Positions 22,134 through 55,719 of a stretch of 64,000 bases of DNA are shown piece after piece. Numbering within the stretch: the first letter of the stretch is position 1; the number at the start of each line of letters is the position of its first letter. The stretch is from Octopus sinensis (Eukaryota). The stretch covers positions 61,566,001 through 61,630,000 of the forward strand of contig NC_042999.1 in the NCBI RefSeq assembly GCF_006345805.1. The letters run 5' to 3'. The position numbers and the translations under genes were made by a program. Under the pieces are notes generated by a model. It was not told the DNA's origin. It ran no database searches and saw only the letters and a program-made list of their open reading frames with translations.

Positions 22134-22730
22134 TTTGCCAGCTAAGTGTACAGAACAGTGCCCCAGAAGACATCTCTTCCAGCTGGCAAACGACACACAG
22201 TCTGTGTCCGTTCGTATTTGGGAGGGAAGAGATCATCGTTCCAATTTTTAGCCTTACGTCGTACACACGGACTCGAGTTTCTGGGTTGTCACCCGTCCTC
22301 AGCGCGTGTTAATTACTAGCTAGTGATGAGATCTCATTCCACTCGCAAATCATCATATACATTTCTAGCGACTCACTGATCTCGTAAAAAAAAGTGATAT
22401 ACTAAATCTCTGAGCGAAATATAAACAGTGGCGATATGAAAACGTAACATACATTTGCCAACTAATTGTGGCATCCTGTTCAGGTTAGTGCTACTGTTGT
22501 TTATAACCCCAGAATGACATCAAGGCTAGAGCTGGGAGCGATGACCTCCCTTCGCAAATACTAATCAGACACAGACTGTGTGCTGTTAGCCAGCTGGAAG
22601 AGGTGCCTTCCTGGGTCTATAAACAACAGTAGCACTGTCCTGTATAGGAGGCCACACTTCGTTGGCAAATATATGTTACGATTCCGTACCGCTACTGTTT
22701 ATATCTCGCTCAGAGATTTAATATAACATA
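22134..22730. mobile_element. HHR-bearing retrozyme/Penelope-pLTR-like element (family R): about 1.2 tandem units on minus, then an inverted partial unit
   Basis: TTTGCCA recurs at 22134 and 22454; inversion at about 22521; homologous to 54769-55365. Confidence 0.8.
22264..22308 (-). ncRNA. Type I hammerhead ribozyme motif
   Basis: CACGCG CTGAGGA C GGGT GACA ACCC A GAAAC TCGA GTC CGTGTG: stem I of 6 bp (one G-U), stem II of 4 bp, palindromic stem III ACTCGAGT, GUC cleavage triplet. Confidence 0.85.
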
Positions 22731-23354
22731 GTTGTATTTCATAACATTGTTTCTCACTAGCTATAGCTTACTATATGACTTCAATATATTTTTATGTATG
22801 TATATGTATATATATATATATATATATATATATATATATATATATATAATATATATATGTGTGTGTGTGTGTGTGTGTGTGTGCGCGTGTGTGTGTGTGC
22901 GCGCGTATGGACAATAATAGAGGTTAAAACTTTTTTTTTAATCTTTTATCAGTACCCAGTATATAAAATGAAACCAAATGAGGTGAAAACTATATCACGG
23001 GAGAGTCTTTTGGCAATCCCAGAAATTAGGCTAATACAGAACTATCTATTCTATTAAAAATTTCCGTTAGCTTGTCGAATTCAACGCGTGTGTTTCTGAC
23101 TTCTTTGAGTGGGGAGACGATTTAGCGTCTATTTCTCAGCATATAGGCAAGAAAAGATTTTTCTAAGCCCTAATTATAATTATATATATATATATATGTG
23201 TGTGTGTGTGTGTGTGTGTGTGTGTGTGTGTGTGTGTGTGTGTATATAGATGTATGCTTGTATGTATGTATGTATGTATGTAAGTATGTATGCATGTGTG
23301 TATGTATGCATATGCCTGTGTATGTATAGCCATATGTATATGTTTGAAGTTGCT

Positions 23355-24153
23355 CAGGATGTCACAAAGGTCACAGATGGGTTTCAATTTTTATAACTTC
23401 CTTAACTTTACAAATAAATGCATGAAATTTTGATACAATATAAAGGCCATAATGGAAATTAATATGCACAAGTCAAATTTTGCGACACCACTACATCACA
23501 TATGGAAAAGGACATCGCTTAAATGGCAGCCATTTTCGGCTTCGCACGCCCGAACTCTTTCCAAAATTTATTCTGTAACACCCTCAAACTTTTCAGACCC
23601 CAATTTTTTGATTTCTCTATAGGTGTTCTCCTTGAGTTGCACCAGGTTCTCCGGTTTGTTGACGAAAACTTTCTCTTTCTGATATTCCCACAAGCAAAGA
23701 TCCGGGCTAGTCAAGTCTGGGGAGGTGAAAGCCAGTTGACATTGCTGTAGTGGGAGATAATTCTCTCGCCAGAGCACCACCGTAGCAACGGCATGGTTTT
23801 TCTTGTGGTCTAAGTAGTTTCCTCATCTTGCTAGAACTATGTGTGAGGTCTACTTTGAATGGCCGGGTGAACAAAGGTCTTAGTCAATGATACCTGAAAG
23901 AGAGATTTTACGTCAAGAAACAGGAGACCCTGGTGCAACTGAAGGAGAACATCAATAGAGAAAACATAGAAGTGGAGTTGAAAATGGCTGCCATTTGAGC
24001 GATGCCAGTTTTCATATTTTTATGCAAAATGTGACTCGTGCATATAAATTTCCATTATATCCTTTATATTGTATAAAACTTTCATGCATTTATTCGTAAA
24101 ATCAAGGATGTTATTAAAAATTGAAAGTCTCCAGGGACTTTTGGGACACCCTG
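23355..24153. mobile_element. Tc1/mariner-derived fold-back element with a transposase C-terminal remnant
   Basis: Terminal inverted repeats CAGGATGTCACAAA / TTTGGGACACCCTG followed by TA; long inverted arms; the minus frame gives SPDLTSPDLCLWEY (SPDLxPxDxxLWG-like). Confidence 0.8.
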
Positions 24154-24154
24154 T

Positions 24155-24700
24155 ATATACATATACATATATATATATATACATATATCTATCTATCTAT
24201 CTATCTATCTATATATATATAATATATATATATATTATATATATATATATAATATATATATATATATATATATATATATATATTATATATATATATATAT
24301 CTATATATATATATATATACATATATACATACATATGCATACACATATAAATATATATATATGCATACGCGCATATGTACCGAAATATGTGTGGATAGAT
24401 AGATAGATAGATACATACATACATACATACATACATACAGACAGACAGATAGATAGATAGATAGATAGATAGATAGATAGATAGACAGACAGACAGACAG
24501 ACAGACAGACAGACAGACAGACAGATAGATAGATAGATAGATAGATAGATAGATAGATAGATAGATAGATAGATAGATAGATAGATAGATAGATATGTAG
24601 GTAGGTAGGTAGGTAGGTAGTTCGATAGATAGATAGATAGATAGATAGATAGATAGATAGATAGATAGATAGATAGATAGATAGATAGATAGATAGATAG
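24155..24700. repeat. Compound (TA)n/(GATA)n/(GACA)n microsatellite
   Basis: Visible directly in the sequence. Confidence 0.95.
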
Positions 24701-24764
24701 AGGAGTCGGTATAGATCATGCTTGAGCGCTAAGTCCAGAAGTTTTTTTATTATCTCTGTTTATT

Positions 24765-24897
24765 CTCTTATTCCTGTTGAATAACGTAGGCTCGAAACGT
24801 AAAATACTTTCTCACTTTCCCGAGCGTCAATCTAATACAACTACTTGTTATTTATACTTGTCTTTGTCTGTTGTTTTTTTCTGTAAATTTCAACCAT
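24765..24897 (+). mobile_element. Family H fragment with a degenerate HHR, ending in (TA)n
   Basis: CTGTTGAATAACGTAGGCTCGAAACGTAAAA followed by a ttcccgagcgtc tail shared with 44715-44846 (minus) and 51825-51955. Confidence 0.6.
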
Positions 24898-24909
24898 ATA
24901 TATATATTA

Positions 24910-53340: not shown

Positions 53341-54398
53341 TTTTACTTGTTTCAGTCATTTGACTGCAGCCGTTCTGGAACACCGCCTTTAGTCGAACAA
53401 ACCGAACCCGGGTATCCGGCCTCTGTAAGTTTGGTACTTATTTTATCGGTCTCTTCTGCTGACCGCTAATTTACGGGGGCATAAGTATTGCCAACGTTGG
53501 TTGTCAAGCGATGATGAGAGGACAAACACAGACACAAAGACACACCTACATAAATATATATATATATATATATATATATATATAATATATATAATATATA
53601 TATATATATATATATAAAACTGTAGTTGTCTGAGTGTCTGTCCCCTTCGATTTAGATTCCTAACTCCTCCCACATTTTGCGGTGCAGTTTAACCAAATTC
53701 GGGTATCTTATAGTCGTGATTCATATCGAGCCCGTCTGACTATTAGCGCGCGTCAACGATGAGTCTACGATTTTAAAAATAATTAACATCATTTTTTATT
53801 CCATTTTAATGCATAAAATGCATCGTATGTCGATGGCGGCGGAGTTGGCGTCCACGCTCACAGCTGCACCTGTTTGCTTCTCCCCCTTCCCTCCCTCGTG
53901 AAGCTGTGGGGAAGGGAGTGTAAAGAAATCAACGTCGTAATGCGTTGTGAGGGAAACCAGCGTTCTTTTAGAACAACGACTTCATGGCTTGAAGACACCA
54001 AAACAAAAATGGCTAAGAAAGCCCGAATTTATAAGGGAAGTAACTCTCTAAAAATGCTTATATAGTTATTTCCCTTACAAACCCGAGCAACGCCGGGCGA
54101 TACTGCTAGTATATATATAAAATAATATGCCGAAGTGGAAATCCACAACACCATCTCTGTATGTATATTTATATGTACTTATATATATATGATGTATTTT
54201 ATATTATATATATATATATATATATATATATATATATATATATATATATATATGTACAACGGGATTTTCCGTTTATCAAATCCACTCACAAGGTTTTGGT
54301 CGATCTGGGGCTATAGTAGAAGACACATGCCCAAGGTGCCACGCAGTGGGACTTAATTCGGAATCGTGTGGTTGGGAAGCAACCTCCTTATCGCACCT
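53341..54398 (-). mobile_element. SINE family A split by a Helitron that inserted in its internal (TA)n tract
   Basis: 3' half at 53341-53545 and 5' half at 54255-54398. Confidence 0.7.
53608..54109 (+). mobile_element. Non-autonomous Helitron
   Basis: 3' CCCGAGCAACGCCGGG hairpin followed by CTAG|T; homologous to 24910-25296. Confidence 0.75.
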
Positions 54399-54419
54399 AG
54401 CTATATATACTTGTGTGTA

Positions 54420-54545
54420 CGTGTGTGTGTGTGTGTGTGTGTGAGAGAGAGAGAGAGAGAGTGAATGTATAGATAGATAGATAGATAGATAGATAGATAG
54501 ATAGATAGATAGATAGATAGATAGATAGATAGATAGATAGATAGA
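54420..54545. repeat. (GT)n(GA)n(GATA)n microsatellite
   Basis: Visible directly in the sequence. Confidence 0.95.
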
Positions 54546-54925
54546 TACAATAAGAACCTTACAGTTCGAACGTAGCCAGCTTTGTAAACATACACACGTA
54601 CACATAAACACGCATACAGATACATATTTATGCATACATACACACAGAGTGAAAGGATCAGATAATATCTATCTTTGCACATACATTTCATATCTCTCCT
54701 CAGGCATCCACTTGACTCTGCATGTATACTAGTATATGTGGTTTTCCTAGCATGATTTTCACCCAATTTTTGCCACCTTCATGTGGCTGACCCATATGGG
54801 GCGATGCTACTGTTATTTATAACTCCAGGAAGGCATCTCCACCAGCTGGCTAATGACACACTGTCTGTGCCCGATCAGTGTTTGCGAAGGGAAATCATTG
54901 TTTCCATCTCTATCCTTACGTGATA

Positions 54926-54970
54926 CACACGGAGCCGGGTTTCTGAGTGGTAACCCGTCATCAGCGTGTG
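54926..54970 (-). ncRNA. Type I hammerhead motif (stem III G-to-C variant)
   Basis: CACACG CTGATGA C GGGT TACC ACTC A GAAAC CCGG CTC CGTGTG. Confidence 0.7.
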
Positions 54971-55163
54971 ACAATCACCGGCGAGGGATGAGATGTGATT
55001 CCAAATGCAAAATACTATATGATTTTTTCAGTGACAAACTGTTGCTGGTATCGAAAAAGGAGAAACAGGTAATAATAAATCTCTGAGCGAGATGGTTTGT
55101 CACTGGAAAAAGCATATAGTACTTTGCGTTTGAAATCACGTCTCATCCCTAGCCGGTGATTAT

Positions 55164-55208
55164 CACACGCTGATGACAGGTTACTATTCAGAAACCCGGG
55201 TCCGTGTG
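55164..55208 (+). ncRNA. Type I hammerhead ribozyme motif
   Basis: CACACG CTGATGA CAGGTTACTATTCA GAAAC CCGG GTC CGTGTG: perfect 6-bp stem I, palindromic ACCCGGGT, predicted cut after C55202; stem II is weakened. Confidence 0.75.
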
Positions 55209-55719
55209 TATCACGTAAGGCTAGAGATGGGAACCATGATTTCCCTTCGCAAATATAAATCGGGCACAGACAGTGTGTCGTTAACCAGCTGGAGGAGATG
55301 TCTTCCTGGAGCTGTAAACTACAGTAGCATCGTCCCATATGGGTCACCCACATTTAGGTGGCAAATATACTTCACGACATATATATAAGAATTTATTTTC
55401 GTATTGAGATAAAAAAAAAACAAGGCTGTGTAGATATTAGAATATATCTCATTACGAAAAAAATTCTTACATACACACGCTGACATAGAACCAACGTTGA
55501 ACCCCTTATTCGCAAAATTACCGAATCTGGAATTTAACTATGGTCTGTCTATAGCACTTATTCACCATTACCTGACACCTTTGGGTCTCATTGATACCAT
55601 TATCTCTTATATATATATATATAATATATATATATATATATATATATATATATAGTATATATATATATATTATATATATATATATATATAATATATATAT
55701 ATATATATATATATATATA

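Follow-up and report, generated by a model that had tools for sequence, protein, structure and literature searches.

The 64,000-nucleotide stretch of Octopus sinensis DNA analyzed here (contig NC_042999.1; hereafter the window) contains two loci, near 22 kb (locus 1) and near 55 kb (locus 2), that share a non-coding unit bearing a type I hammerhead ribozyme motif. Our subject is what this unit is and how its copies came to be inserted. A sequence-only reading of the same DNA had proposed that the two loci hold a common non-coding unit, and this proposal held (Table 1); nhmmer found no third copy in the 64-kb window. The unit has a G+C content (GC) of 0.43 to 0.46, and the window, at 33.6% GC, is rich in microsatellites, with decayed long interspersed nuclear element (LINE), short interspersed nuclear element-like and mariner pieces. 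No reverse transcriptase (RT) or GIY-YIG domain was found at either locus, and the five in-element open reading frames (ORFs), among 113 ORFs scanned, gave no Pfam match.

The anatomy of the two loci is that of insertions made by Penelope-like elements (PLEs). The signature described for PLE insertions consists of a partial tandem, an adjacent inverted 5′-truncated copy, a one-sided tail and a bias toward (TA)n (PMC8557442; PMC8969392). At the octopus loci we found a fixed 3′ end, 5′ truncation, an inverted 5′-truncated copy, a one-sided tail and, at locus 1, a partial tandem. Each of the five 3′ ends present in the window terminates at TGGCAAA, and in the two undeleted ribozyme arms the 3′ end lies 163 nt downstream of the cut site. 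The TTTGCCA noted earlier at 22134 and 22454 of locus 1, and the inverted copy noted at each locus, were both confirmed. Locus 2 is a fold-back of two head-to-head arms, with 84% identity over 607 columns and 88.5% over 270 aligned bases. A (TA)n tract lies beside locus 1 and a short TA run follows the tail of locus 2; no target-site duplication was seen at either locus. Arms are 84 to 88% identical within a locus and 70 to 80% identical between loci, so the insertions are old and belong to different subfamilies, and the higher identity within a locus is what would be expected if a single event made both arms. Because this anatomy matches the PLE signature of the two papers, the hammerhead-bearing unit would very probably have been mobilized by a Penelope-type enzyme; the sequence-only reading had proposed a non-autonomous multicopy unit moved in this way, and the insertion anatomy argues for it more strongly than that reading did. 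Neither locus carries two ribozymes on the same strand, so neither could release a monomer or a circle by double cleavage, and both are probably dead ends.

Table 1. Parts of the two loci and their positions in the window (pLTR, pseudo-long terminal repeat)
Feature	Positions	Strand	Remarks
Locus 1, complete unit, 320 bp	22134–22453	−	Ends at TGGCAAA adjoining (TA)n; longest Met-ORF 34 aa
Locus 1, hammerhead, best preserved of the three	22264–22308	−	C3 at 22302; predicted cut after C22270; helix III ACUCGAGU; C10.1-A11.1 mismatch
Locus 1, 68-bp 3′ piece of a second unit, head-to-tail partial tandem (pLTR-like), without ribozyme	22454–22521	−	
Locus 1, inverted 5′-truncated copy, 148 bp, without ribozyme	22522–22669	+	Starts 14 nt downstream of the cut-site position
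Locus 1, one-sided tail, about 60 bp	22670–22728	+	Past the 3′ end into the unit start; 86% to 22390–22453 (−)
Locus 2, left arm, 325 bp	54769–55093	−	About the first 32 bp of the monomer absent
Locus 2, hammerhead of left arm	54926–54970	−	G16.2>C at 54934
Locus 2, right arm, 270 bp	55096–55365	+	Inverted, 5′-truncated; 3′ end as in the left arm
Locus 2, hammerhead of right arm	55164–55208	+	Intact GUC (C55202); ACCCGGGU; weakened helix II
Locus 2, 12-bp tail, right side only	55366–55377	+	Matches the unit start known from loose ends of other copies

A descriptor scan placed type I hammerhead cores in three arms, at 22302-22270 (−), 54964-54932 (−) and 55170-55202 (+), and a strict form of the descriptor matched twice in the window and not once in any of 60 shuffles. 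We number positions by the usual hammerhead scheme (C3, N7, 10.1, 11.1, 16.2, C17). The catalytic core, CUGANGA...GAAA...UH, is retained by all three arms together with helices I to III in type I order, one arm carrying G16.2>C, and the scan predicts cuts after C22270 (−) and C55202 (+), the same two positions that had been proposed from inspection. Helix III reads ACUCGAGU at locus 1 and ACCCGGGU in the right arm of locus 2; each is self-complementary, as had been said of this change, and the corresponding intermolecular helix III duplexes have predicted energies of −10.7 and −14.9 kcal/mol. The difference reported at N7 of the core (G versus U between copies) is also real. The claim of a complete hammerhead at each locus needs qualification: the core bears it out, but a C10.1-A11.1 mismatch at the base of helix II, where the usual pair is G-C, had been overlooked in all three arms, and each arm of locus 2 has a defect of its own. 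Likewise, the coordinates given for locus 2 were correct, but two arms had been merged in its description. The good helix II (TACC loop with a GGGT/ACTC stem) is that of the left arm, in which G16.2>C breaks helix III, whereas the intact GUC and palindrome (ACCCGGGT, C55202) are those of the right arm, whose helix II (AGGU/AUUC) has one mismatch and two G-U pairs. Since a G-C pair directly adjoins the C-A mismatch, the latter can be interpreted as a single-base insertion on both sides.

Helix I has 6 bp and a long extension, helix II has 4 bp, and helix III has 2 bp capped by a palindromic tetraloop; there is one extra nucleotide after A9, and G12 is preceded by an additional A. Such an architecture is the canonical type I one and not the minimal PLE form that the sequence-only reading had cited. 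In an Rfam comparison of the kind suggested in that reading, a search of 101 nt matched Hammerhead_1 (RF00163) to 22264-22308 with a score of 18.9 bits and an E value of 0.017, but this is under the gathering score of 34, and 55140-55240, in the right arm of locus 2, gave no hammerhead match. No hammerhead occurs among the 150 of 161 matches listed from the Rfam scan of the whole window. MicroRNA matches of Rfam over palindromes and microsatellites, also under the gathering score, were rejected as hairpin artefacts.

The size and abundance of the family were assessed in contigs of sequencing runs, by aligning one arm and its flank at 80% likeness to the contigs of 4 of 24 listed runs. Three of these (X1, X5 and X8, with organism labels A, B and D) are DNA runs, and X15 is guessed to be RNA; the results rest on the rows listed, namely 24 of 552 loose ends, 40 of 151 variants and 32 of 2763 pieces. 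Matching contigs numbered 960 in X1, 744 in X5 and 910 in X8 (which has no coverage of the left flank of locus 2), and the summed depth over the ribozyme in X1 and X5, which is not a true copy number, was 750 to 810 times that of the flank. These figures point to hundreds of diverged copies of the unit. Head-to-tail joints from 55092 to 54771 (with 36 further letters, X1) and from 55094 to 54770 (with 32, X8) amount to 358 and 357 bp. The family monomer is therefore 357 to 358 bp and not the 320 to 350 nt first estimated; in the 320-bp unit of locus 1, two small deletions close to the 3′ end have removed about 17 and 11 bp. Two further listed joints step back 291 and 312 bases, and at least seven strand-switch joints, each at a different place, are among the rows listed. 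Several of the pieces listed go uninterrupted from the start of the unit to beyond the ribozyme (records 2, 4 and 6 of X1; 21 and 24 of X5; 28, 30, 31 and 32 of X8), so the short form is common, and the start-side loose ends among those listed continue into homologous unit sequence. The flank-element junction is identical in X1 and X5, with no differences over 182 letters. The family occurs in 95 contigs of X15, none at 99% or more, and these contigs are blind to strand, level, ends and circles and may include DNA. Motif scans for the hammerhead unit in metagenome contigs and viral contigs gave no match.

The same contigs show how the ribozyme region varies, although their variant table gives no linkage between sites. 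The G16.2>C change of the left arm is private, with the pairing G making up 93 to 97% of depth. Between 54858 and 55017, 26 variant rows are listed, 13 at unpaired positions and 13 on predicted pairs. Twelve of the latter keep or restore a standard pair (six turn a mismatch and two a G-U into a Watson-Crick pair, and four turn a Watson-Crick pair into G-U), and one breaks a pair, which suggests a better-paired ancestor of the unit. None of the 40 variant rows listed falls in the catalytic core or at 10.1/11.1. Listing seems to have been confined to variants that reach about 27% in at least one run, so C10.1-A11.1 is probably the majority state of the family. As for the helix III change, position 54938 varies in 30 to 38% of depth, and the row for its partner, 54935, is not among the 40 listed.

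In predicted folds a long rod carries the ribozyme at its tip, with a z score of −3.35 in the right arm of locus 2 (55142-55232) and of about −1 in the other two arms. A near-palindromic hairpin precedes the 3′ end (54790-54800, 55334-55343, 22475-22484 and 22638-22647), differing on both sides between two subfamilies (CCCATATGGG-type versus CCTG..AGG-type), and is followed by a GCCA/TGGC hairpin at the terminus. We rather expect that the family ribozyme would cut weakly, and best as a dimer or with the help of a protein.

We assign a probability of about 0.55 to the reading that both loci are decayed copies of an abundant non-coding hammerhead repeat of about 358 bp, inserted in trans by a PLE RT-endonuclease from uncut read-through RNA. 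At the level of class, which this reading shares with one in which the template is a circle, we are fairly confident that the unit is a non-autonomous PLE derivative of the retrozyme kind. The PLE of the anole provides a model. In purified form, its protein nicks both strands of AT-rich DNA and extends them (Frangieh et al. 2024, PMC11167929), reverse transcription starts at two internal RNA sites with the tail being the stretch between them, and ribozyme cleavage is assisted by the protein and dispensable for insertion (PMC11167929). By analogy, an octopus RNA spanning the head-to-tail junction would be bound by a PLE protein that would nick both strands of AT-rich DNA. Reverse transcription would begin inside the RNA, either at TGGCAAA just behind the small terminal hairpin or a little further on; a start at the further site would leave the tail behind, and priming on both strands would yield head-to-head arms. 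Because all three ribozyme arms have been copied through an intact scissile bond, the template would have been either uncut RNA or a re-ligated circle, and of the two we prefer uncut read-through RNA.

Several observations weigh against this reading. Protein-profile scans of the ORFs of the window and short-motif look-ups in the supplement of PMC8557442 found no autonomous partner PLE, and eight of nine predicted retrozyme dimers gave no cleavage in vitro in a recent preprint (bioRxiv 10.64898/2026.07.22.740005). The C10.1-A11.1 mismatch stands in place of a G-C pair at the base of helix II that is described as highly conserved in hammerheads (PMC4209133). In each of the three arms the minimum-energy fold is more stable than the hammerhead fold, and compared with shuffles the terminal hairpin shows no gain in stability (z −1.5 to +0.2 at four of the 3′ ends; the fifth lacks it). 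The sequence-only reading had made much of covariation, which the window copies do not demonstrate: RNAalifold found changes on both sides in 0 of 50 pairs among the window copies, and in the named hammerhead structure 1 of 14 pairs changed on both sides, which 154 of 500 shuffles match and for which a neutral estimate gives a P of about 0.17 to 0.22. Covariation among the window copies is within chance. In the contigs, the pair-restoring tally is partly circular, since the structure was derived from arms that carry the majority letters; taken by itself, the lack of core variants in the rows listed does not reach significance (P roughly 0.15 by estimate); and the survey figures come from a part of all rows. 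Finally, some loose ends exit the unit beside the ribozyme (54943 in X1, 54970 in X5, 54981 and 54904 in X15), and these could belong to a longer parent.

A less probable alternative, which follows the retrozyme life cycle and was the view of the sequence-only reading, keeps the family and the PLE enzyme and changes the template: tandem source arrays would be transcribed and the RNA cut by two ribozymes, the 358-nt monomers ligated, and the resulting circle reverse-transcribed past its junction. The monomer size, a GC of about 43 to 46% and the canonical type I form match the circle-yielding retrozymes of mussel and axolotl (PMC7229834), and the locus 1 unit folds as a circle with a z score of −2.7. 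Copies do run through the junction, both at locus 1 and in the contig joints, but the junction also exists in DNA, so its sequence cannot prove a circle. The inverted arm of locus 1 stops 14 nt short of the cut site, which fits copying of cut RNA, in one case. Against double cleavage, neither locus has two same-strand ribozymes and no piece among those listed contains two (the longest listed record has 525 letters), and the anole PLE needs no ribozyme cleavage, its main substrate being uncut RNA (PMC11167929). In its fullest and still doubtful form, this alternative has a retrozyme family spread across a whole lineage, with a variant hammerhead (C-A) and replication via a 358-nt circle, whose dispersed copies bear a full PLE integration scar, with two internal start sites and priming on both strands. 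Were that combination of circle and scar true, it would be direct structural evidence that PLE enzymes insert retrozyme RNA, and the points of 5′ truncation would tell whether the template was cut, uncut or circular.

That the unit is nothing but the terminal repeat (pLTR) of an autonomous PLE, or arose from one by a rare deletion, with the two loci being ordinary truncated ends, we consider unlikely. Every architectural feature is equally typical of the ends of autonomous PLEs (PMC8557442), and in an annotation of O. vulgaris such elements are plentiful, 190 PLE families making up 6.83% of the genome (PMC13282606). In X1, moreover, depth is about 13,500 over the ribozyme region versus 2,400 to 3,900 over the unit start, and a few loose ends exit beside the ribozyme. 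Yet in the tandem joints only about 120 to 150 bp separate the sequence that follows the 3′ end from the ribozyme downstream of it, as both loci and at least nine listed contigs from three runs show, and so close a unit start leaves no room for an ORF; no ORF with RT and GIY-YIG domains, as expected between the repeats of an autonomous PLE, was found. In the right arm an AUG within the core opens a 71-codon frame, a feature shared with the anole element (PMC11167929), but the frame is broken in the other arms and has no PLE protein match. One protein search with this frame gave no match; in another, four of the five matches were weak and summed over tandem protein repeats, and the fifth was to P0066 (described below). 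Eleven of 12 short unit motifs are absent from the PMC8557442 supplement, in which line breaks can hide matches, and the twelfth has two unrelated-looking 9-letter matches. A fold-back DNA transposon (a miniature inverted-repeat element) or a replication-made palindrome with the ribozyme as passenger or chance motif is very improbable: locus 2 is indeed a 600-bp imperfect palindrome with TGGCAAA-type ends, but this idea is largely refuted by inversion points that vary between loci and between copies and by the head-to-tail joints, and it also sits poorly with the partial tandem, the one-sided tail, the absence of a target-site duplication and the absence of the strict motif from 60 shuffles.

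Related sequences occur elsewhere in the window and beyond it. A predicted protein of 225 aa, P0066, consists of about four tandem 59-codon (177-bp) repeats, each 49 to 58% identical to the translated 3′ part of the unit, through the junction into the tail (22565-22723) and without the ribozyme part; the homology to that part is real, but the protein is probably a false gene model, predicted on a tandem derivative that lacks the ribozyme and belongs to some other genome. Follow-up searches with P0066 found no relatives. In the window, a fold-back insert at 60146-60615, beside (TA)n, has arms 98.5% identical with outward-pointing hammerhead-like cores (60473, +; 60288, −) that have a long helix II, a palindromic helix III and a 3-bp helix I; it probably represents a very recent insertion of a different PLE family. 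A second, at 48426-49047 (86% arms), has a hammerhead-like core in its left arm (48652, −) with a helix I of only 1 bp. Five further fold-back inserts (4181-4398, 4579-4718, 27531-28050, 36583-36899 and 63236-63412), most of which adjoin TA runs, are possibly PLE end pieces too; no strict hammerhead was found in these five, and there are looser core-like strings at 4259 (−) and 27881 (+). At 44842-44816 (−), a minimal hammerhead-like motif of the type found in PLE pLTRs stands alone. The window also holds a direct duplication of about 960 bp at 55608-57490 (55608-56572 and 56534-57490, 96.8% identity), which is a recent tandem duplication or an assembly artefact, a mariner transposase remnant at 45640-46407 (−; Pfam Transposase_1, HTH_48), LINE RT fragments at 9151-10150 and 19711-20592, and a zinc-knuckle fragment at 5167-5463.

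The sequence-only reading had suggested that the family might be undescribed in cephalopods. A literature search on octopus or cephalopod hammerheads, ribozymes, Penelope or retrozymes gave no report of it, and the family may have been catalogued, in the O. vulgaris library, Repbase or Dfam, without its ribozyme being noticed; ribozymes go unmentioned in the passages on PLE families of the O. vulgaris annotation (PMC13282606). Retrozymes as such, however, are described. Non-LTR retrozymes are tandem units of about 170 to 400 bp with canonical type I hammerheads and yield circular RNA in coral, mussel and axolotl (Cervera and de la Pena 2020, PMC7229834), and animal retrozymes have been proposed to be non-autonomous PLEs (Li, Clavereau and Pollet 2026, bioRxiv 10.64898/2026.07.22.740005) from a sample of 31 vertebrates, three insects and one anthozoan, with no mollusc, and with cleavage in one of nine dimers. 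PLE-linked hammerheads in octopus are already in print, a Hydra-clade PLE of Octopus bimaculoides having one whose sequence is unlike that of this unit (PMC8557442 supplement). The octopus unit is a short non-coding monomer, in the range of about 150 to 400 bp, with GC below 50% and one canonical type I hammerhead. Judged from DNA, in which neither locus has two consecutive ribozyme units, it would very probably work like a retrozyme-type element. We regard it as probably a new family within the already described animal retrozymes, unreported in octopus, and not a new kind of element. In print, the link between retrozymes and PLEs rests mainly on co-occurrence and on pLTR sequence similarity (PMC7229834; 10.64898/2026.07.22.740005). 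A short ribozyme family with hundreds of copies that bear PLE-specific inversions and tails offers a mechanistic test of where reverse transcription starts and of whether it stops at the cut site, and the family also supplies an example from nature of a hammerhead in which C-A replaces a pair that is normally conserved.

Compared with known systems, the loci resemble PLEs, including the non-autonomous MRC1, in the partial tandem, the inverted 5′-truncated neighbor, the one-sided tail, the AT-rich or (TA)n target and a ribozyme upstream of an internal 3′ end (PMC8557442; PMC11167929), and they differ in the absence of an ORF and in tails of about 60 and 12 bp versus 30 to 40 bp in PLEs. With the minimal PLE-type hammerhead the motif shares type I topology, a palindromic helix III and the extra nucleotide after A9, but it departs from that form in a helix I of 6 bp with its long extension, in a helix II limited to 4 bp, in the presence of helix III and in the additional A that precedes G12. 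Non-LTR retrozymes form arrays with a ribozyme in every unit, whereas the loci here are scattered insertions of PLE style that have inversions and tails. Features shared with these retrozymes are a non-coding monomer (350 to 390 bp in mussel), low GC, a canonical type I hammerhead, head-to-tail repeats and proposed mobilization by PLEs (PMC7229834; 10.64898/2026.07.22.740005), and axolotl HHR_Amex2 shares with the octopus motif a 2-bp helix III with a tetraloop and a mismatch at the base of helix II, U-U there and C-A here (PMC7229834).

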